NCBI GenBank assembly: GCA_963810935.1
Contig: CAWEPK010000012.1
Span: 320,001 to 384,000 of the forward strand
Origin: an uncultured delta proteobacterium
GTDB lineage: Bacteria > Desulfobacterota > Syntrophorhabdia > Syntrophorhabdales > WCHB1-27
Length of the DNA: 64,000 bases
Direction of reading: 5' to 3'
Each line of letters opens with the position of its first letter. Position 1 is the stretch's first letter. The translations under genes were made by a program, and so were the position numbers. A model generated the notes under the pieces. That model saw only the letters and a list, made by a program, of their open reading frames with translations. It did no database searches and was not told the DNA's origin. Positions 1,453 through 17,585 of this stretch are shown here, piece after piece.

Positions 1453-2400
1453 ATGAAGGCTCTTCCAACCAGCAGGATTTTAATCGGCATAGCGTTGCTT
1501 CTGGGCATCTTCACCCTAACGGGCACTGCGTCAGCCGCCCTTTTCACGGACGTCAACCTGGGGACCGCCGGTTCTTCCGGACTCAACCTGGGCGTCTTCG
1601 TTACGGGTGGTACGACGGTCAGCGGCACCAACTACTCGACGATCAACACCAACCTCGGTTTGTCGAGCGGATCGAATACGAACCTCTCGGGCATGGGCAC
1701 CCTGAGCGGCACGATATATAAGGACCCGGGCGCCAGCGTCCAGAACAACCTCAGCACGTCGTTCAACGTGACTGGCGGAGTAACCTCGCAGAGCCTGTCG
1801 GCTGCATTGACCAGCGCCCAAAGCGCAGCGTCGAATGCCCTCTCGCTGAGCGCCAACCAGACCTATAGCACAGGCATCGACTCCTCGACCACCATCACGA
1901 ACTCCGGCGGCACGCTCAACACCCTGGGCGGCTACGATAAGGTGGTCAACATTACCGGCAATATCGCATTGAGCGGCTCGTCTGCTGCACTTACGATCTC
2001 CGGCGGGGCGAACGACTACTTCATAGTCAACATAACAGGGCTCGTATCCGTCACCAGCGGCGCCGACATCATCACTACCGGGGGCATCACGGCCGGCCAC
2101 ATCCTCTTTAACATAGAGGGGACCGGCAGCAGCCTTACCGTTAGCGGCACCGGGTCCGTCATAGACGGCACCTTCCTGGCCGTAAACTCCGGCCAGACCA
2201 TGACCGTCTCTTCCGGTACGGTCAACGGCGGCATGATGGGCTACCAGATCCAGACGGGCGCATCGGGCACGACGACCATAAACGGCCAGCTCTACCAAGG
2301 CCCGCCCTCGGCAGTCCCGCTGCCTCCGTCGCTCCTGATGCTGGCTCCCGGACTCTTCGGACTCGCCGTTTTGCGCAAGCGCTTCACCGTTAAAGATTAG
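1453..2400 (+). CDS. Secreted Ser/Thr/Gly-rich surface protein with ice-binding-like (DUF3494-type) beta-solenoid and VPLPA-CTERM sorting signal
   Basis: Signal peptide; LTISGGANDYFIVNI...HILFNI...GTFLA pattern; C-terminal AVPLPPSLLMLAPGLFGLAVLRKR. Confidence 0.75.
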   Translation: MKALPTSRILIGIALLLGIFTLTGTASAALFTDVNLGTAGSSGLNLGVFVTGGTTVSGTNYSTINTNLGLSSGSNTNLSGMGTLSGTIYKDPGASVQNNLSTSFNVTGGVTSQSLSAALTSAQSAASNALSLSANQTYSTGIDSSTTITNSGGTLNTLGGYDKVVNITGNIALSGSSAALTISGGANDYFIVNITGLVSVTSGADIITTGGITAGHILFNIEGTGSSLTVSGTGSVIDGTFLAVNSGQTMTVSSGTVNGGMMGYQIQTGASGTTTINGQLYQGPPSAVPLPPSLLMLAPGLFGLAVLRKRFTVKD

Positions 2401-2635
2401 CCGTCAACTGTCCCGCCTGCCGGGCACCCGCGCAACGCGGGTCTCCCGGCAAGGCCAGGGGCTTTCCCTTGGAGGGGCGAACTTTTTCGCTTGGGGAAAC
2501 GGGGCGTTTTTTTTCAACACGGGGCCTTCTGCGGGTGCGGAAGGCCCCGTTTTTGTATTGTTAATGGGGGGCGGGACGTCCGTTGCTCTTACCCGCCCTC
2601 TTATAGTCAACCGCAGCATCTTTACGCCATGCTGC

Positions 2636-5600
2636 TCACTTTCCGCAACACTTCTTGTATTTTTTTCCACTCCCGCACGGACAAGGGTCATTTCGTCCGA
2701 CTTTCCCGGTTTGGCGTATTAGCGTTCGGTCCTCGGTGAACTCTTCCAATTTAATGTGCGGTTTCAAATCCTCCGGCAGGCCGTCATAAATGTTTTGGCA
2801 CGTCTTTCTGAATTTATTCAGTCCGAGAATCGCGCGGACTCGGCTGATAGATCCGGCAGCGTCGCTCTTGTCCACACCCATACTCTCTCGAATACCATAA
2901 GATTTAAGGAAACACTCTAAAGCCGCAGGAAAATGTTTTCGTGAGTGCCAGACGTGGCCCATATTATAAAGCGATATGGCTATGCCCTCCTTGTCACCTA
3001 TTTCCTCTTTAATCTTCAAACTCTCTCTGTGCTGCTCCATTGCACCGGGTAGATTGCCCTGGTCCTGAAGAACTAAGCCTATATTGTTAAGGGAAGCGGC
3101 GATGCCCTCCTTGTCGCCTATTTCCTCTTGGATCTTCAGGCTCCCTCTGTACTGCGTCAATGCACCGGACAGGTCGCCCTGTTTCCCAAGAACCAGGCCC
3201 ATATTGTTAAGGCAAACGGCTATGCCTGCCTTGTCGCCTATTTCCTCTCTAATTCTTAGACTCTCTCCGCACTGCTTCAGCGCACCGGACAGGTCGCCCT
3301 GTTTCCCAAGAACCAGGCCCATATTGTTAAGGCAAACGGCTATGCCTGCCTTGTCGCCTATTTCCTCATGGATCTTCAGGCTCCCTCTGTACTGCGTCAA
3401 TGCACCGGACAGGTCGCCCTGTTTCCCAAGAATCAAGCCTATATTGTTAAGGGAAGTCGCAATGCCTGCATTGTCGCCAATGGCTTTGCGAATATCCAAA
3501 CTTTGGCTCAGCCACTGTTCGGCGCTCTGAAAATTACCAAAGAACTGAAATGCCAAGCCTATGTCGTTTGCACTTCGCCCTTGTTCTTTCTTATAGTTAT
3601 ATTGTTTGCAACGCTCGTAAGCATCTTCAAAATACTTGAGCGCTTCCCGTACTTCCCCTTTTCGATATAGCATCTCGCCGAATCTTATGTATGCCTCAGC
3701 GGTTACTCTGTCATCGGCCGCTTCAAAGGAAAATGCCTCCTCGAAATGCCTCGATGCCTCGCCCCATTCACCCCTCAACTGGGCTACGTCCCCCAGGAAT
3801 ATCCGGTATTCAGGTCTGTCCAAACCCCGTGCCCGCGCTTTGGCGATCATTTCAAGAAGAGAATTTGTGTGTCCGGAAAGGACGAACTTTTCTCCAGTGT
3901 TGCTTATGAAATTTGCTAATCTGGCTGGGTCATTGCCTCCTGCGATATGATAAAAGATCTCTTCTTCAAGGAAAGGGTCAAATCGAGTTGATCTCCTTGC
4001 CTCATAGTATGAAGCGGCTTTCCCATGCGCTGCCTGCTTGCTCGAAAGCCTTTGATAACAGAACTCCCGAATCAGCGGGTGCGTCCTATACAAACCACTC
4101 GTCACTGAAAGCATCTTTTTATCGATAAGTTTGTACAAGGTGGCGCTTACGTCCTTCATATCAAAAAGAAAAGAAATACCGCTTTTATCGATTTCGGACC
4201 TAAACACTGAGAAGTTGAGCAAGAAATCTTTTTCCTCATCCGTGCTCCTCGGATGGTTGAACACTTCATCGAGAAGCCGCGCACTCAAATCCCTGCTTTT
4301 GTCCCCTGCCCTAACTATTTTTTCAATGATATCCTTTGGAGGTTCTCCGTAACTGAGAAGCTGTAATGCTAATTCTATGGCAAGCGGATGCCCGCCGAGC
4401 TTTTCACTGATATTAGACAGGTCCGCGTCACTCACTTCTAAACTTGCGTAATACTCCTGCCTGAGCTTCTGCGCATAACGCAGCGCTGCATCACCTAGGC
4501 CGTGTAGCTCGATCGGCGCAAACCTTACCCCGAAAGTCGGATGTTCACGTGAGACGAGTACGATCCTTGCTTTATGGAGTCTTCTTTCCGCAAACTTCAG
4601 CAACCTCTCGAATGAATTGCTTGAAAGGACATGGAAATTATCGAGAAATATGCTCTTCTCGTCTCTTTCGATCAGATCGATGAACCCGCTATACTTAGCA
4701 AGCTCGGTCTTGCTTTCCCCTTTCAACACCTCCGGGTATCCGGATAAACCTATAAGGGCATCGATCTCTGAATCAGGCAGACACTCGAACCAGACAGTCT
4801 TTTCCTTCGGCAGAAACTCCTCAATGCATTTCAAGGCAAATTCTGTCTTCCCAACCCCGCCGAGGCCCTCGACAGAGATCAGGTTCGATTTTGCGAGAAG
4901 TTCCCTAAACTCAGCTTTCTTTTGTTCCATGCCCGTAAAGAGTCTCGTCGGTTCAGGCACGGAGACAGAAGGCACTGTGACGCTTAATGCAACAGGAGCG
5001 GAAGGCGCCATCTTCCCCAACAATCTTTTTAGCTCTGCAAAAACATCCGAGGGCAAAGACCTTTTCCCGCAGGATTCGTCTATCAACACGGTAAAGTCAA
5101 TCTGATCATTGAGATGCAAAATACCTTCCGACCCGGCCCGCAAATATGGGTTTATTCTTCTTATTTGCTCAACGAGCTTCGTTTCAAGCAATTCTTTAAC
5201 GAGGGGGACATATTCGTCACAATTTGCGGGATATCTGAGTGTTATTTTGACGCTATTTTTGGATATTTCAATGTAATCTACATAATGATGCTTATACCAG
5301 TGGACCTGCGAATGTACGGAAAGATTGAATTTCGAAGTTTCGGAAAAATCGATCCTCTTGCACTGAAGATCAAGCTCGTCTGCGATTAAAAGAAGGGCGG
5401 CAAGTAATTGACCTCTGAAGGGCCGGCCCTTGGGCGTATAAGCGCCGCCGGCGAGTTTCACTATAACCTCTGGAAAATAATCGGTCGAATGCCCTTTGCA
5501 AACAAAGGCAATAGGCGCTATATATTCCTCGTCTATTGAAGCGGGCAGATGAAAATCATCCCTTCCTACGCTCTCAGCCACACGTTTAAGGATTATCTCG

Positions 5601-5967
5601 CTGCTTAACTCGGCATGTCTTGTTCGTATCTCGTCGTACTCCTTCTCAGTTAGTTTCTCTATTGGGAAATCCGGCCATTTCAAAAACTGCATACCCACGT
5701 CATGCAGGTAAGCCGACGCAAGGAGCACAAACAGTTCGTGTTTGTTGGGAAATAGCTTGGTGCTACCTTCTAAAGGGCTGAGGAGTGGCCTAGTATATAG
5801 ATAATTTCTTTCGAATGAGCAGGGCCGTGGTCTGTAAACCATGGCAGGAGGTTGCTTATCCACACACCATCGCAGAACTTCTCTATGTCCTGCAAAGTGC
5901 TGAAAAGCTGCCCGTCCATCGACTTCAGTTTTTCGACTAGCGCCAACTCCCCTTCATCGCCAATCAT
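2636..5967 (-). CDS. HD-domain + NB-ARC/STAND NTPase + TPR + SEC-C protein; 1-nt frameshift near 5787
   Basis: ORF 5770-5967 ([11 protein letters not shown]) joins ORF 2636-5863 ([37 protein letters not shown]; 40-aa TPRs; [18 protein letters not shown]). Confidence 0.8.
2956..3480. repeat. 120-bp tandem repeats encoding TPR units (about 4.5 copies)
   Basis: 3181-3240 is identical to 3301-3360; 3121-3180 matches 3361-3420 at 59/60. Confidence 0.95.
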
Positions 5968-6353
5968 TTATCAACCCCCTCCACACATCCAAAGCCGTAT
6001 GATCCGCTCTGTAGGACGATACCACTGAAATCTTCCTTCATGCACATCATGCCATTACAGAGGCCGATTGTGCAACAACAAAACCAATGACGCCATAAAG
6101 GCAATAATTGCGGCAGAATTAAGATGAGGGGTCCTCAGTTACGGAGAGGAAACGGAAGTCGAGCACCGTATGTTTTACGGCGGCTAAAAGCACCGGGGCC
6201 GGTATCCCGTATAAATATTTATTCTTCTTGACAGCGTTCGGGATTTTTAGAGACGTTGTTTCCTAATGTTTATTACTGTCGCCTTCTTTTTTCCTCCGGC
6301 TACCTTCTACAAAACAAATCACATTAGGCAACAACGTCCCCGATGTTGGTAAA

Positions 6354-6701
6354 TTATGCCCCGGCTTCCTTATTACCCGGCGCTTTTTCGTCGGCAATGG
6401 ATGAGAAGTTAGTAATCTTCACGGCCCCGTCGGGGAAACAGGCAACGATATCCAAGGTGCCGCCCATGGCCTCGATAGCAGCCCGCAATGTCGAAACATA
6501 GATATCTGTGCGTTTTTCCAGTTTGGCTACGTTAGGCTGTTTGATGTGCAGCTCTTTAGCAAGCGTTTCCTGGGACATACCGCGAGCCCTTCTCAGCTCA
6601 TGCAGTGGCATTTTCGTAAGCATTTTCCGATAGCGCTTGTCCGAGCGGGCAATCGCCTCGGGCGACATTTTGGCTTCCAGCTCAACAAACTTACGAGCCA
6701 T
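6354..6701 (-). CDS. XRE/HTH antitoxin (HigA-like)
   Basis: LHELRRARGMSQETLAKELHIKQPNVAKLEKRTDIYVSTL; overlaps the toxin stop. Confidence 0.88.
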   Translation of the reverse strand: MARKFVELEAKMSPEAIARSDKRYRKMLTKMPLHELRRARGMSQETLAKELHIKQPNVAKLEKRTDIYVSTLRAAIEAMGGTLDIVACFPDGAVKITNFSSIADEKAPGNKEAGA

Positions 6702-7059
6702 CTTTTAAGCCCTCCTTTCGCAATGTCTTCAAATGTTCGTCATAAAGTCGGTCCGCTTTGGGCGCGTATTCCTCGTACCAGCGATCATTTCCGGTCTTCT
6801 CTCCGCCGATCAGCAGGATGGCGCATCGACGAGGATCGAACGCATAGAGCACACGATAGGGTCGGCCGGCATGTTAAATCCTGAGTTCGCGCATGTTGCC
6901 GTGCTTTGATATCCCCACACCGCTGGAATGAGGGAACGGGAGATTGGGTCCAAAGTCGCCCAGGAGCTTAACGCTTGCACGCACCGATTCCTGCTCTGTT
7001 TCCTTCAGGCCCGCCCACCAATCGCCGAACTCATCGGTATATTCGATGTCCCATTCCAC
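6691..7059 (-). pseudogene. RelE/HigB (Gp49-like) toxin with an internal TAA at 6874-6876
   Basis: VEWDIEYTDEF...GPNLPFPHSS...MRELRI*HAGRPYRVLYAFDPRRCAILLIGGEKTG; the same frame continues past the stop. Confidence 0.85.
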
Positions 7060-7185
7060 GTTTAATAATATACCCCGCAGGATATATACTGTCAAGGGTA
7101 TAATGTCTCATGGTGATAGGGAATTTATTGGTGATTATTTACTTGACAAAGATTGGGTATAATGATAGACTGAAAGAATGATAGA

Positions 7186-7323
7186 TTACTTTTCGGTTTT
7201 CTTCTTTTCTTCCGACAACTTATCAACGAGTTTGCGCATGTGCTTAGCCACCTTGGGGTGGAAGACGTGCGCGATAACCTCATCGGCTGTCATCTCTTTC
7301 GCTGGCTTCTTCTTCTCTTTCAT
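7186..7323 (-). CDS. Small basic hypothetical protein (45 aa), divergent from the transposase
   Basis: MKEKKKPAKEMTADEVIAHVFHPKVAKHMRKLVDKLSEEKKKTEK with an AAGGAG RBS. Confidence 0.5.
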   Translation of the reverse strand: MKEKKKPAKEMTADEVIAHVFHPKVAKHMRKLVDKLSEEKKKTEK

Positions 7324-7334
7324 GGAGGCTCCTT

Positions 7335-8234
7335 ATGGATACTAATTTAATTGATCTCGTGGCAGAGTTCAACGGCAACGAAGATAAATGTAAAAGCCAC
7401 CTTGAGGAGCTAAGATGGCCGGACGGCCTAAAATGCCCGCGCTGTGAATCTGCCAAAGTATCTCCTGTCAAAGAAGGCAGTCATATCTTCGATTGCCTTA
7501 CCTGCGGGTATCAGTTCACAGTTACCGCCAATACAATCTTCCATGATACTCACTTGCCTCTTTGGAAGTGGTTTTTGGCGGTCTATCTCATGACAGAAAG
7601 CAAAAAGGGTATATCGGCCAACCAACTCAAAAGAACGCTGAAAATCAGCTATAAGACAGCTTGGTATCTCTGCCACAGAATTAGGAAGGCGATGGAAGAA
7701 GCTGCGCCTGGCCCGAAGCTCAACGGAACAGTTGAAGTCGATGAGACATACGTGGGCGGGAGATACGACAAGAGGCGGAAACGGCACGCATACGAGAAAC
7801 AAGCGGTCCTGGGGATGATTGAGCGGAAAGGCAAGCTCGAAGTCAAGGCGGTTCGGGGAACGGGCAACAAGATTATCATCCCGATTATCGAAGATCGGGT
7901 AAACAAAGACGCAAGGGTTATGACAGACGACTATGTGGGCTATACGAGACTCGACAAGGACGGCTACCACCGTGATGTCATCGACCACAAGCACGATGAA
8001 TGGGTAAAGGGCGACGTCTACACCAACACTATTGAAAACGCCTGGAGCCTGTTTAAGCGGTCGATAGTTGGTTCTTTCCATCACATCAGCACCAAGCACG
8101 TTGAAGCATATCTTGACGAATTCGAATGGAGATTCAACGAGCGCAAGAACCCGCACCTATACCGGGATACCATGATAAGGCTCTTGAACGCGCCTAAGAT
8201 GGAGTTTAAGGAATTGATAGAGAAAGAAGCATAA
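7335..8234 (+). CDS. IS1595-family (ISXO2-like) transposase
   Basis: Zn ribbon RWPDGLKCPRC...CLTC; VEVDETY, MTDD, TNTIENAWSLFKR, YLDEFEWRFN. Confidence 0.95.
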   Translation: MDTNLIDLVAEFNGNEDKCKSHLEELRWPDGLKCPRCESAKVSPVKEGSHIFDCLTCGYQFTVTANTIFHDTHLPLWKWFLAVYLMTESKKGISANQLKRTLKISYKTAWYLCHRIRKAMEEAAPGPKLNGTVEVDETYVGGRYDKRRKRHAYEKQAVLGMIERKGKLEVKAVRGTGNKIIIPIIEDRVNKDARVMTDDYVGYTRLDKDGYHRDVIDHKHDEWVKGDVYTNTIENAWSLFKRSIVGSFHHISTKHVEAYLDEFEWRFNERKNPHLYRDTMIRLLNAPKMEFKELIEKEA

Positions 8235-8328
8235 ATCAGCAATACTCTTCCCATAAGACTCCAATTACGCATATAATAACTACTAAACAGAAGAGAACTA
8301 TAAAAACCCTTGCGGCGGTGATATCGTC

Positions 8329-8919
8329 TTGGGTTATTTTGTCTACGCTCTCAAATTTGTTGACTCGCATAACGGAGGAGTCGCTGCTCTTGCCACTATA
8401 GTAATCGCCGTCTTCACGGTTCTTTTGTGGCGGTCCACTCATAAGATGTGGAGAGCCACCAGTGATACTGCTAAGGCCGCAAGAGACAGCGCCGATGCTC
8501 TCCGCGCAACAGAGAGAGCCTATGTTCACGCGGGGGCTGCGTTTGGTGGCGTCAAAACGGAAGGAAGCGCGTATGTCATTCAAACAAATTTTGCAATAGC
8601 GAAGTATGGCAAAACACCGGCGGTTATTAACGGAATTAAGATATTGTGGAACCTTGAGCCTAAAATACCGGACGGTCAAGAAATGGATGTTTTTCCCCGG
8701 CAACACACTGCCACCATACTTGATAAAGACCCGATTACCGATGGCGTCGGTGTTCCGGTTAAAGGGGAAGACTGGAAGGACATTCTGGCATTGAAAAAAC
8801 AACTTTTTTTCTTGGTAAGAGTTGAGTACCAAGATGTTTTTGATGAGTCCTATATTAAAGACTTCTGGTGGGTGTTCAAACCCACTGACCGTGTTTGGAG
8901 CATATATAAGAACACATAA
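8329..8919 (+). CDS. Membrane-anchored hypothetical protein (IS passenger)
   Basis: TM helix ALATIVIAVFTVLLW followed by a coiled linker and ERAYV motif. Confidence 0.7.
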   Translation: MGYFVYALKFVDSHNGGVAALATIVIAVFTVLLWRSTHKMWRATSDTAKAARDSADALRATERAYVHAGAAFGGVKTEGSAYVIQTNFAIAKYGKTPAVINGIKILWNLEPKIPDGQEMDVFPRQHTATILDKDPITDGVGVPVKGEDWKDILALKKQLFFLVRVEYQDVFDESYIKDFWWVFKPTDRVWSIYKNT

Positions 8920-9145
8920 GCCGCTCAATAACGGTGTGATTAGTATTAATTTGTAGAATTTTACTAACGAACCTTGACGCAAGCAAACCCTCCGTGATAG
9001 AATAGACTTGCCTATTCCGGCGGGCTTCTTAGGGCTTGATAGCCAAGGTAGGGCCAAAGCTGTCAGGACCAACTAAGTCGATCTATAAAAACCCACTACA
9101 ACAAAAAAATATTACTCCCCTGTCACGGGGATGTCAAGAAAGGGG

Positions 9146-9556
9146 TCACTTATGGTTGGCTGGTTTTACGATCTCGCCCCCGTCCAACGGGTTCTGCTTC
9201 CCCTCATTGTGGCCGGTTGGTTGATTGTGGTCTTGATGTGGCTGAATATCCGACGCAGGCAAAAAAGGCTTGAAGAACTTCTCGATGTTGGGAATCGCGG
9301 CCGCGAGAAGGGTAAAAGCGGTAATGATTAAAACCGCTATCGTCATGTTTCTAATCTGTCTTTGGATTCTCAGGTTCTCCTTTTCTGCTATCCTTCGCTG
9401 TGTATTAAGGGAGTTTTCCCTTTCTAGTTCCTTGAGCCTTAGCCATTCCTGAACGTGGTCAACGGTCAAAGTTCCTGGATAGCCAAAGTCCCCATTAGCA
9501 AGACGTTTTCTGACTTCAACTTCTCCCCATTTTTCAAGCTCATCCAATAAAGCCAT
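9146..9556 (-). CDS. Hypothetical membrane protein (IS passenger)
   Basis: 136-aa ORF with coiled coil and TM segment MTIAVLIITAFTLLAAAI; directly behind a promoter-like motif in the right TIR. Confidence 0.6.
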   Translation of the reverse strand: MALLDELEKWGEVEVRKRLANGDFGYPGTLTVDHVQEWLRLKELERENSLNTQRRIAEKENLRIQRQIRNMTIAVLIITAFTLLAAAIPNIEKFFKPFLPASDIQPHQDHNQPTGHNEGKQNPLDGGEIVKPANHK

Positions 9557-9725
9557 TCTTCATCATACCATGCACCCTTATCTTTGTGAAGTGAATAATC
9601 ACCAATTTATTCTCTTGACAAGCCCCCAGAACGTATTGTACCCATTATACGGTACCCATGAAGCAGTATTAACGTGACGCACTGTGTCCGCAAAAAGGTT
9701 TTAGGCAAAATTAGGATAGATATTC

Positions 9726-10385
9726 ATGCTGATGCGTAAAATTGAGAAGCAGCCGCCTTTGCGGAAGATTGTTTATGAACAGTTGAAGACCAGCATTCTC
9801 GATGGCGCGATCCCTAAGGGAGCTAAGCTTTACGAGACAAAGATCTCGGAGGAAATGGGGATCAGCCGGACGCCTGTTAGAGAGGCGCTTCATGCGCTTG
9901 AGAGAGAGTACCTTATCAAGGGCATCGATAAAGTCGGATACAGGATAGTCGATATGGAATCGGACGACCTCGAAGAGATTTCGGAGATCAGGAAGTCGGT
10001 CGAGGCGCTGGCCGTGAAACGTGGAATAGAACGGATCGGGGTGAAGGAGATAAAAGAGCTCGATGACAACCTCGGTAAGTCGGCAAGCTTGATAGCCCAG
10101 GGCAAGCATGAGCGGTTTGTCCAATTAGACGCCGAGTTTCATCGTCTGCTTTGCTCCCTGAGTCAGAGCGAGAGGCTGATAAGAATGGCCGATGGTCTGC
10201 GCAAGGAGATGACTGGATTCAGAAACAGTCTGAAAAACAATCGGGCCTTGGCCGAGGTTTCCCTTGAATATCACCGGAAAATAGTCGCCTGCATCAAGAA
10301 GAAGGATGCCTCGGGCGCTAGTAGCGCCCTCAATGAGCATATAGACGATATCAGGAAAGAACGTGAAAAACTCATCCCGAAATAA
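9726..10385 (+). CDS. GntR-family (FCD) transcriptional regulator
   Basis: ISRTPVREAL HTH; DAEFH in the FCD domain. Confidence 0.95.
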   Translation: MLMRKIEKQPPLRKIVYEQLKTSILDGAIPKGAKLYETKISEEMGISRTPVREALHALEREYLIKGIDKVGYRIVDMESDDLEEISEIRKSVEALAVKRGIERIGVKEIKELDDNLGKSASLIAQGKHERFVQLDAEFHRLLCSLSQSERLIRMADGLRKEMTGFRNSLKNNRALAEVSLEYHRKIVACIKKKDASGASSALNEHIDDIRKEREKLIPK

Positions 10386-10502
10386 CATTTTTTTGCGCGG
10401 ACAGCTTGGGTACGGTGCCCAACCGCTATGCTATCCATACTTTCGGCCGGCATGCGGCGATCGGGGTTCCGTGCCTGATCATGCTGATTTGAGGGAGGAC
10501 CA

Positions 10503-15179: not shown

Positions 15180-15530
15180 TCATTCCTCCCGGGCCTTCGG
15201 CCTGAGGTCGAGACCGACCAGGATTTTCTCCGTGTCGGCCAGATCGCCGATGAATTTTCTCAGGGGAGGCGGAAGCTCTTTAACCAGAGTGGGAGCGGCA
15301 ATGATCTGCTCCCCTTCTGCCAGAGTCGGCTGCTGGTAGATGTCGATGACCTCCAGTTTATAGCGGCCCTTGAGGTGCTCTTCGCATATCTTCTTGAGGT
15401 TGTCGATGGCGCGGGTAGATTTGGCCGAGGTGCCGGCAATATAAAGGCGGAGAAGATACTGCTTACTGCGTGAGTCTTTGATCGCTTTCTCGAAGATTTC
15501 AACGCTGTCTTTAGGTGCTTCTTTCACCAT
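15180..15530 (-). CDS. kaiB: KaiB-family protein
   Basis: [29 protein letters not shown]. Confidence 0.93.
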
Positions 15531-15873
15531 TGCTCACTTCCAGCTTTAGGTTTCCGGGCTTAATATCAAGCCCGACGAGCACGCGCTCCGTGTTAGACAG
15601 GTCCCCTATGACTTTTCTTATTGGAGGTGGCAGCTTCCGGACCAGAGTTGGGACAGCGACGATCTGGTCGCCCTGGGCGAGTTGAGGGTTCTTCGATAAG
15701 TCGATGATTTCTATACGATAACGACCGGAAAGATGCTCCTCACAGAGGTTTGTGAGGTTTTGAAATGCCGCGATCGCCTTGGGGGTTTGTCCCGCCACGT
15801 ACAGCCGCAGCTCCCAAATCTCGCCGTCCGCCTCCAACGTTTTGCCCGCCTGCTCTCCTTTTTTTGCGGTCAT
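15511..15873 (-). CDS. kaiB: KaiB-family protein
   Basis: [32 protein letters not shown]. Confidence 0.93.
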
Positions 15874-17585
15874 AGGGACACCTTCGCGTCTGCCTTGCGA
15901 AGATGCGCCATCTGCTTGCGCTGCTCGTCTTCAGCCTTCTTTCGCTTCTCTCCCTGCCGGGCGATCTTCTTCATTTCCGCCTTGTCGGCGTCGATGCCCG
16001 CCCGTATGGCGGCGATCTGCGCCTCCGCGAGGGTCCGCCTGTGCTCAAGCTCCCGCCGTTTCCGGTCGAGGTCATCCTTCATCTCCGCATCGGCCATGCG
16101 TTCTTTCGCCTCCTGCGCAGCGCGCGCCGAGCCAGTCAGGACCCCGTATGGCCCGAGGTAGACATCCTGGAGCTCGATACCGTGGTCCGTGAGAAGGAAC
16201 TCGCGTATCTGGTTCGAGTGGGCCATGCCGCGCGACTTGGGGATCATCAGGCCGCGGTTCCTCTCGCCGTTGCTTTCCAGGTCGCGGAGGACCATCCAGG
16301 TGTCCATCAGCGAGGATATGCCTGCTTCCGTCTTTTCGAGACTCCTGCCGCCTTGTGTGAGGCTGGTGAACAGGGCCGTGACACGCTCCGTCTTGAGATA
16401 GTCGATGAGGCGCGTGAGCATCGATTTCACCTCTTGCTCGCCGCCCGCAGTTATCAGATTGGTAATGGGATCGATCACGGCCACGCTCGGCTTGAAGGTA
16501 TCGACAGCCTTATGCATGGTCGCAAGATGCGTTTCGAGACCGAAGACCGTCGGGCGTGACGCCTTGAACAGTAACAAGCCCTTGTCTATGAACGGCTGGA
16601 GGTCGATGCCTATAGATTTCATGTTGCGCACGATCTGGCTCTCCGACTCCTCGAAGGCGAAGTATAGGACCCTCTCCTTCCGCTGGCAGGCAGACCTTGC
16701 AAAGACAGCGGCTACGCTCGACTTTCCGGTGCCTGCCGTCCCTGACAGGAGAATGGTGCTTCCCCGGAAATAGCCTTTGCCCGAAAGCATGGCGTCGAGG
16801 CGGGGAATGCCCGTCGGGATGCGCTCCTTCGAGGCAGCGTGCCTGAGGCCGAGAGAGGTGACGGGCAGGACGCTTATGCCGTTGGCGCCGATGAGGAAGG
16901 GGTATTCGTTCGTGCCGTGAGAGGAGCCGCGGTACTTGACGACTCGCAAGCGCCTGGTCGAGAGCTGCTCGGTCACGCGGTGGTCGAGGACGATCACGCA
17001 GTCTGCGACGTACTCTTCAAGCCCATGGCGGGTCAGCGTACCTGCCCCTCTCTCGCCGGTAATGACCGCCGTCACCCCCTTCTCTTTCAGCCACCGGAAA
17101 AGGCGCCTTAGCTCTGCCCTGAGTATGGCCTCATTGGGGAGGCTTGCGAAAAGCACCTCTATCGTGTCGAGGACTACACGCTTCGCCTTTATCGAATCGA
17201 TGGCCGAGCCGAGTCTAATGAAGAGGCCGGACAGGTCGTACTCCCCCGTCTCCTCGATCTCGCTTCGCTCGATATAGACATAGTCGAGCGCGATTTTCTT
17301 CTCGTGGGCGAGCTTTTTCAGATCGAAGCCTAAAGACTTGACGTTGCTGGTCATCTCCTCCGAGGTTTCCTCGAATGCCATGAACACGCCCGGCTCGTTG
17401 TACTCCAGTGCGCCGTGGACGAGAAACTCCATGGCGAGTAAGGTCTTGCCGGAACCAGCAGCGCCGGCTATCAGCGTTGGCCTGCCCTTCGGCAAACCGC
17501 CATTCGTGACCTCGTCGAGCCCTTTGATTCCTGTCGGCGCTTTCTCAAGAACGCCTTCAGGTTGACCTTTGCGAGATTTATTCAT
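15870..17585 (-). CDS. kaiC: KaiC double-domain ATPase
   Basis: Two RecA-like domains ([16 protein letters not shown]), [22 protein letters not shown]. Confidence 0.96.

Follow-up and report, generated by a model that had tools for sequence, protein, structure and literature searches.

Among the closest described systems are the Avs/AVAST receptors (Avs1-24; Lee et al. 2026, PMC13581612), which, in the accessible part of that report, are likewise encoded by a single gene with an effector-STAND-TPR layout and interchangeable effectors, and among which a receptor that incorporates a host factor (EF-Tu) sets a precedent. The same source puts the number of defence STAND families at 90 or more, most of them TPR-like, and requires of a defence clade that at least 50% of its representatives carry defence effector domains; statistical enrichment of defence genes within 5 kb is a further criterion there. 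The bNACHT proteins (Kibby et al., 10.1101/2022.07.19.500537, accessible part) share TIR, SIR2, HNH, HEPN, calcineurin-like, GT4 and peptidase heads with the clade described here, but the NTPase of our gene is not a NACHT: Pfam NACHT matched neither the protein encoded in the window (the whole stretch of 64,000 nucleotides analysed) nor the clade relatives scanned. The best structural match for the NOD-arm-TPR part of the window gene is PH0952 (PDB 6MFV) together with MalT. According to the available part of its description (PMC6468293), PH0952 takes a place between the clades of MalT and Apaf-1, and contacts made by its arm and TPR parts keep it autoinhibited; both PH0952 and MalT differ from the window gene in being transcription regulators with DNA-binding effectors, at 19% identity.

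The window gene was recorded in the ORF list as two frames, a 1075-codon frame (5863-2636) and a separate upstream frame from ATG 5967 that holds TDHGPAHS (Table 1). The first-pass annotation had described an HD-NB-ARC-TPR-SEC-C protein in a lower-GC setting, and all of the motifs that it named were found at the expected positions on the minus strand. The Pfam HD-CE profile (PF24391) matched with E 6.6e-20 and 72.3 bits, against a cut-off of 27, when the query frame without its first 60 residues was used, and Pfam also supported the TPR sensor (TPR_12, six stretches, E 9.5e-57) and the SEC-C zinc knuckle (E 9.8e-10). The GC content of the gene was 47.8% compared to 58.4% for the contig, in agreement with the lower-GC claim, and its GC3 was 52%, compared to 76-79% in four flanking housekeeping-type genes. 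The NB-ARC label held in part, as its motifs were present and STAND structures ranked at the top in Foldseek, but Pfam NB-ARC did not match the window protein at E<=0.01; on clade relatives this profile scored 19-41 bits, straddling its cut-off of 23.5. With the window protein, no NCBIfam family exceeded its cut-off, and PADLOC recognised the TPR and SEC-C pieces alone, with no system model that fits. The named Avs families of PADLOC 2.0 had no profile match in the window protein or in 16 clade members, and the gene further differs from Avs in a sensor of canonical 40-aa TPRs plus a SecA tail. The gene most likely encodes an intact bacterial immune receptor of the one-gene kind, in which a nucleotide-cutting enzyme is coupled to an ATPase switch and a repeat sensor, a reading against which the want of a PADLOC system model has to be counted.

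Table 1. Features of the window gene and of its surroundings, with positions in the window except where a contig of the assembly (G000) is given.
Feature	Position	Strand	Basis or remark
Whole gene, HD-CE - STAND - arm/TPR - SecA-type tail; 1110 aa once the lacking base is restored	2636..5967	-	ORFs, Pfam, run contigs
HD-CE phosphohydrolase domain; H-x3-H, HD, H, H, D ligands complete	5006..5967	-	Pfam, motifs, fold
STAND NOD module (Walker A, Walker B, GxP, HPL motif); PH0952/MalT/Apaf-1-like fold	4016..4963	-	Foldseek, motifs
Arm, TPR sensor, C-terminal helices	2700..4015	-	Pfam, predicted structure
TPR units in tandem, 120 nt (40 aa) each, DNA likeness 65-84%	2956..3555	-	repeat search
SEC-C / SecA-like metal-binding tail; near-identical to own genome's SecA tail	2639..2698	-	Pfam, comparison
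GGAGG ribosome-binding-like site, 10 nt ahead of ATG 5967	5978..5982	-	sequence
TDHGPAHS	5835-5812	-	frame from ATG 5967
YLHDVG	5710-5693	-	motif
ADELD	5383-5369	-	motif
GLGGVGKT	4867-4844	-	motif
IFLDNF	4651-4634	-	motif
GGHPLAI	4396-4376	-	motif
THPLIRE	4084-4064	-	motif
SEC-C	2698-2645	-	Pfam
One-base gap in assembly; extra base in runs X1, X2, X3	5785..5786		run contigs
Frameshifts, secA and three other genes	G000 C10 near 79135; C12 196371; C16 148593; C5 224758		residual indel errors
Terminator-like hairpin; likeness to same-genus G012 stops at 2575, the left edge of accessory DNA	2519..2575	+	genome comparison
Short repeated element, 18-nt inverted arms	6240..6416		repeat search
HigA-like HTH antitoxin, intact	6354..6701	-	Pfam
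RelE/HigB-like (Gp49-like) toxin with in-frame stop at 6876-6874	6703..7038	-	Pfam
IS1595-family element, 57-nt imperfect inverted ends, transposase 7335-8234	7118..9615		Pfam, NCBIfam, repeat search

A 1-nt deletion splitting the HD domain had been reported near 5787, and the comparison with sequencing runs confirmed it, placing it behind 5785. Contigs were obtained from four public runs of a single study, which may not represent the source sample of the window; X4 had no cover at 5785, while the three covering runs (one contig each; depth 3.7, 4.5 and 6.2) all carried an extra C. This base joins both frames into 1110 codons, and the joined product matches intact homologues at 70-78% identity. 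The secA gene is frameshifted in the same assembly, and 3 further gene breaks were seen among about 43 well-matched places. Since 3/3 covering runs carry the base and the assembly also breaks secA, the gap is probably an assembly error, so that error is favoured among the two options, sequencing error or effector inactivation, that had been proposed. A true pseudogene in this genome, whose effector was lost after acquisition as in the neighbouring toxin, is partly compatible with the receptor reading and agrees with the real stop in the adjacent toxin and with the truncated or split homologues known from L002, L005 and L008; a 100%-identical protein of another record (P0001) likewise starts downstream of the break and carries a second break of its own. 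The base in the run contigs and the frameshifts in the other genes of the assembly argue against it, and we consider it very improbable. The single study behind the runs, with a sample that may be another one, and the start of P0001 past the break also weigh against an intact receptor. Clustering of the indels at AGCT fitted the restored gene and secA, but was not borne out by the 3 other sites, which lack AGCT.

The structure of an intact homologue (P0002) was predicted with AlphaFold2 (pLDDT 82.6, pTM 0.48), and a Foldseek search with this model returned PH0952 (6MFV, E 1.9e-16) as the best match, with MalT and Apaf-1 also among the top structures. The NBD-HD-WHD fold of STAND NTPases was found with Walker A, Walker B, GxP and the WHD His motif, and Walker A was intact in 94/97 cases. 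For P0002, the ESM Atlas search yielded nothing beyond generic STAND-TPR clusters. Across 61 members, WHD and tail are 342 to 663 residues apart, in increments of 40, and in 153 TPR units the most variable positions were 8, 15, 18, 19, 24 and 37. It speaks against a defence receptor that the closest solved structures, PH0952 and MalT, are regulators and not defence proteins.

The HD-CE family was reportedly named by Nicastro et al. in 2023 as a predicted conflict effector, and we take it to be grouped with Calcineurin-CE among predicted nucleotide-targeting conflict effectors. H-x3-H ahead of HD is the pattern of class I phosphodiesterases, so that a phosphodiester or anhydride substrate is favoured without being named. 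The H-x3-H, the HD, two more His and the ADELD aspartates were kept in 73-78 of 78 aligned HD-CE domains, and the domain, which passes the gathering cut-off of the family and has an HD-superfamily fold with conserved metal ligands, is predicted to degrade nucleotides. In the predicted structure of the HD domain from L001 (pLDDT 93.9), the best fold match was the HD domain of PPX/GppA (Z 13.7, rmsd 4.1, 192 aligned), a score that the comparison tool's own note puts at the edge of chance level for helical folds and which to that extent weakens the receptor reading. PDE1B followed (Z 10.2, rmsd 5.3, 234 aligned), with class I phosphodiesterases at Z about 10, and HD-GYP, SpoT and SAMHD1 ranked lower; Foldseek with this model gave no match at E<=0.001, and the HD profile, run against PDB sequences, had no hit below E 0.028. 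No HD-CE activity assay was found in the literature searched, most subscription papers lying outside its coverage. Calcineurin-CE is a predicted nucleotide-targeting conflict effector in the accessible part of its source (10.64898/2026.01.15.699771).

Elsewhere, in 51 scanned regions drawn from 80 of 131 loci, HD-CE was found with NACHT, NB-ARC, nSTAND5, KAP, caspase, NUDIX, TPR and FGE-sulfatase partners. The window gene shares with this family the N-terminal placement on NTPase/repeat proteins and the Pfam match above cut-off, and is set apart by its distinct STAND-TPR clade and SecA-type tail. The combination had not been recognised as a named system, and no PADLOC system model matches it; because HD-CE is a curated family that occurs on several STAND types, the gene is better regarded as a member of a predicted class than as an unrecognised one. 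A second HD-CE protein of 989 aa (Pfam E 4.4e-41) is encoded in this genome beside an rRNA-like region (L081:8244-11213; G000 C18:35228-38209), and its middle part, which by eye resembles an HSP90-type ATPase, had no Pfam match at 1e-4. HD-CE genes that seem to stand alone or to be split, with 46-77% identity to the query, were seen at L003:10001-10924, L013:9980-11008 and L005:2276-5473.

Relatives were collected in an HD+STAND search (52 proteins, 39 with PF24391), a STAND-TPR search (best 120 of 1395 proteins used) and a search of 1.84 billion proteins with a STAND profile (105 representatives at E<=1e-30). As the clade we took the 68 representatives (50% clustering) that scored 185 bits or more and were covered nearly in full or N-terminally. 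Its heads, labelled by BLAST to labelled heads with subsets confirmed by Pfam/PADLOC, were TIR (17), HD (11), SIR2 (6), calcineurin-like (5), DUF4062-like (5), GT4 (2) and HNH (2), besides single cyclase-like, Toprim, HEPN, EAD8, EAD1-like and trypsin heads; 11 were unlabelled, with DUF4062, CHAT and EAD11 among them by Pfam/PADLOC, and 3 were truncated. Behind their different heads, P0072 (TIR) and P0078 (HD) share 90.9% identity along 798 aa, which by this comparison is a recent TIR/HD swap, and a quick tree of 88 rows, some of them truncated, requires 14 changes of the HD head. Two-way shuffling of heads and partners is typical of conflict systems, and the exchange of heads on this chassis is strong indirect evidence for a predicted role in defence. 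By our own labels, which are not the profile list of Lee et al., 33/65 non-truncated representatives bear TIR, SIR2, calcineurin-like, HNH, HEPN, Toprim or trypsin heads, so that the clade passes their 50% effector mark; further representatives carry HD, GT4, DUF4062, CHAT or EAD heads. The accessible text and 7 supplements of that study (PMC13581612) contain no HD or SEC-C wording, and its clade tables may include this clade.

The gene was absent from 21/21 other genomes of the family searched and from 400/400 phylum genomes searched; it is an accessory singleton, and its family is rare and patchy. The carriers include Deltaproteobacteria, Brocadiae-type Planctomycetota, Nitrospirota, Nitrospinota, Smithella and Armatimonadota records. 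A metagenome scan, the matches of which were dominated by the Walker A pattern, placed 2/78 loci in the clade, viral contigs gave 5 matches, all distant, and PLSDB plasmids and INPHARED phages gave none. Among the neighbours scanned at 14 nearer homologous loci (124 ORFs; L004 and, like it, L079 hold more distant STANDs), defence or TA genes were found beside 4, namely Wadjet and ParE (L002), TA pairs and GIY-YIG (L004), an Eco57I-type methylase (L005) and MNT-HEPN (L007), as a raw count with no background set. The other 10 loci, with neither kind of gene among the scanned neighbours, count against a defence receptor, and no partner gene recurs across the 14 loci. The island check on homologues gave a modest result and the neighbours lend weak support to defence; the effector-STAND-TPR defence reading put forward earlier is supported indirectly by the head swapping on the chassis. 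At L002:9346-18011, the gene of a 622-aa HD-STAND protein without TPRs follows ParE and immediately precedes a complete Wadjet operon.

Most homologous loci sit among housekeeping genes, as would be expected of a non-immune signalling STAND that responds to conditions inside the cell (stress in translation or secretion sensed by way of the SecA-type tail, or the metal/redox state of the Cys knuckle) and whose HD-CE removes a second messenger such as a cyclic nucleotide or (p)ppGpp. Phosphodiesterase and PPX/GppA/SpoT folds among the top HD matches, the regulators among the nearest STAND structures and the iron binding and proposed stress response of SecA-like metal-binding domains (10.1101/613315, accessible part) are consistent with such a role. 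It is nevertheless unlikely, given that the chassis also bears HNH, HEPN, Toprim, SIR2, TIR and trypsin heads, that its distribution is extremely patchy and that no partner gene is conserved.

We consider it probable that the gene is a one-gene NLR-like defence receptor in which trigger binding would lead, through ATP-driven oligomerisation and firing of HD-CE, to nucleotide loss and abortive infection. The observed part consists of the domain order, the intact catalytic and ATPase motifs, the STAND fold, the head exchange, the patchiness and the frame that is intact in the reads, and established STAND biology is the source of the proposed activation steps. At rest, the NOD would be closed on ADP and held through arm/TPR contacts. 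A foreign, probably phage, protein would bind in the TPR groove, whereupon ADP would be exchanged for ATP and the receptor would oligomerise. The clustered HD-CE domains would then hydrolyse a cellular nucleotide, most likely from a dNTP/NTP/NAD-type pool and less likely a cyclic messenger, at a phosphodiester or phosphoanhydride bond, and the infected cell would be arrested. As the least certain step, the SecA-type tail might dock the receptor on a partner of the SecA tail, the ribosome or, where present, SecB.

The tail of the window gene shows the CxCx8C(C/H) pattern with the conserved Ser and aromatic residue of SecA-like metal-binding domains, and the SecA of its own genome ends almost like it. 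In the accessible part of 10.1101/613315, the SecA domain, which binds SecB and ribosomes, and YecA/YchJ have the same CxCx8CC with conserved Ser and aromatic residue, and SecA-like domains bind iron with a proposed stress response; here, by comparison, the tail stands on an immune-type STAND, and part of the clade carries instead a Cys-free SecA tail that has no Pfam family. SEC-C scored in 29/54 long clade representatives compared to 2/55 long proteins ranked below the clade, and a cysteine-free end motif was found in 8 of the remaining 25. When the Cys-free stretch of P0147 was searched against 5.8 billion proteins (7 candidates scored), it matched only itself and two SecA proteins, at 58% and 49% identity (E 3.8e-4 and 0.077), the latter representing an Ignavibacteria/Kapabacteria cluster. 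A profile from 11 STAND Cys-free tails scored 50-61 bits on the C-termini of 13 SecA sequences (two clusters), whereas among the controls no score exceeded 8.6 bits for 54152 segments taken from this genome, and reversed SecA reached 2.1 bits; ESM Atlas had no usable match for the Cys-free tail. P0265 and P0266 show this Cys-free SecA C-terminal domain (Ignavibacteria/Kapabacteria), for which no Pfam family is listed.

Among 62 clade members, 49 have a SecA-type tail (38 Cys, 11 Cys-free) and 13 have none. On a quick tree of these 62 rows (51 long representatives and 11 earlier-search proteins; short fragments and three C-terminally truncated rows excluded), well-supported branches force at least 5 changes of the Cys-free label. 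Of 10 hosts searched, 9 had a SecA match, one of them cut off; where the SecA tail of a host of Cys-type members could be read, it was Cys-type in 8/8, 7 with the same last ligand, which is weak evidence because the Cys form is the common one. The hosts of Cys-free tails are labelled Bacteroidales and Leptospiraceae. SEC-C also occurs on two other non-SecA proteins of this genome and in several PADLOC models, so the tail may be a general tether rather than an immunity speciality.

The tail could be bait that mimics the SecA tail as the target of a phage or competitor protein, so that bait binding, and not the TPR groove, would fire the receptor. The presence of both natural SecA tail forms in the clade with the repeated changes of the Cys-free form, and the Cys-type SecA in the 8 readable hosts and in G000, would fit this proposal. 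We regard it as decidedly unlikely, since 13/62 members do without the tail, SEC-C is attached promiscuously to other proteins, in 1/8 the last ligand differs from that of the host SecA, and the variation of the TPR units falls on exposed positions, as expected of a surface that binds a ligand. We tentatively propose an undescribed prokaryotic NLR-like family in which the conserved part is the SecA C-terminal tail and not the effector, re-acquired several times in the form of the host SecA; the tail might tether the receptor to the ribosome or Sec pathway to inspect nascent phage proteins, or serve as decoy for phage proteins that target SecA, and would here fire HD-CE. The literature searched, in which subscription papers are thinly covered, contained no SEC-C-bearing STAND-TPR defence protein, no SecA-tail decoy and no description of an HD-CE-STAND-TPR antiviral system. 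The HD-CE-STAND-TPR layout is expected; the SecA-tail pattern across the clade is the new part and worth following, as it hints at an unexplored way to position or bait immune receptors. The gene is a compact test case for what HD-CE effectors destroy and for whether bacterial NLR-like proteins use host-derived tails for positioning or decoy, much as integrated domains are used by plant NLRs. With P0072 and P0078, which have the same sensor behind different heads, the well-understood output of TIR could serve to find the trigger, for later use with the HD-CE version.

The TA pair and IS noted beside the gene were recovered as a HigA-like/RelE-like pair and an IS1595 element, with the toxin interrupted by a stop; this stop looks real because a 562-nt contig of X2 matches it without difference. 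A promoter-like site (11/12) at 7095-7067 is directed toward the toxin, the antitoxin and the STAND gene. The IS1595 element, possibly a cargo-carrying IS, encloses two ORFs (8329-8919 and 9146-9556), neither with a family match. Further copies of the short repeated element were found at G000 C12:436273-436377 and in G012 and G013, with loose ends in runs X1 and X3, and Rfam matched nothing within 2300-10500. G012 was considered as an empty insertion site, but while the left flank is common, it continues into a YfbR-like gene and not into the right flank. Also common to G012 is a secreted protein at 1453-2400 (+) that is ice-binding-like (PF11999, E 4.2e-05, below cut-off) and has a sorting-like segment at its C-terminus. 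On the minus strand at 15180-17585 lie what we take by eye to be a KaiC-like and two KaiB-like ORFs adjoining a hybrid histidine kinase. At 9878, the 3/3 covering runs show a synonymous third-position difference (T>G) in a GntR gene.
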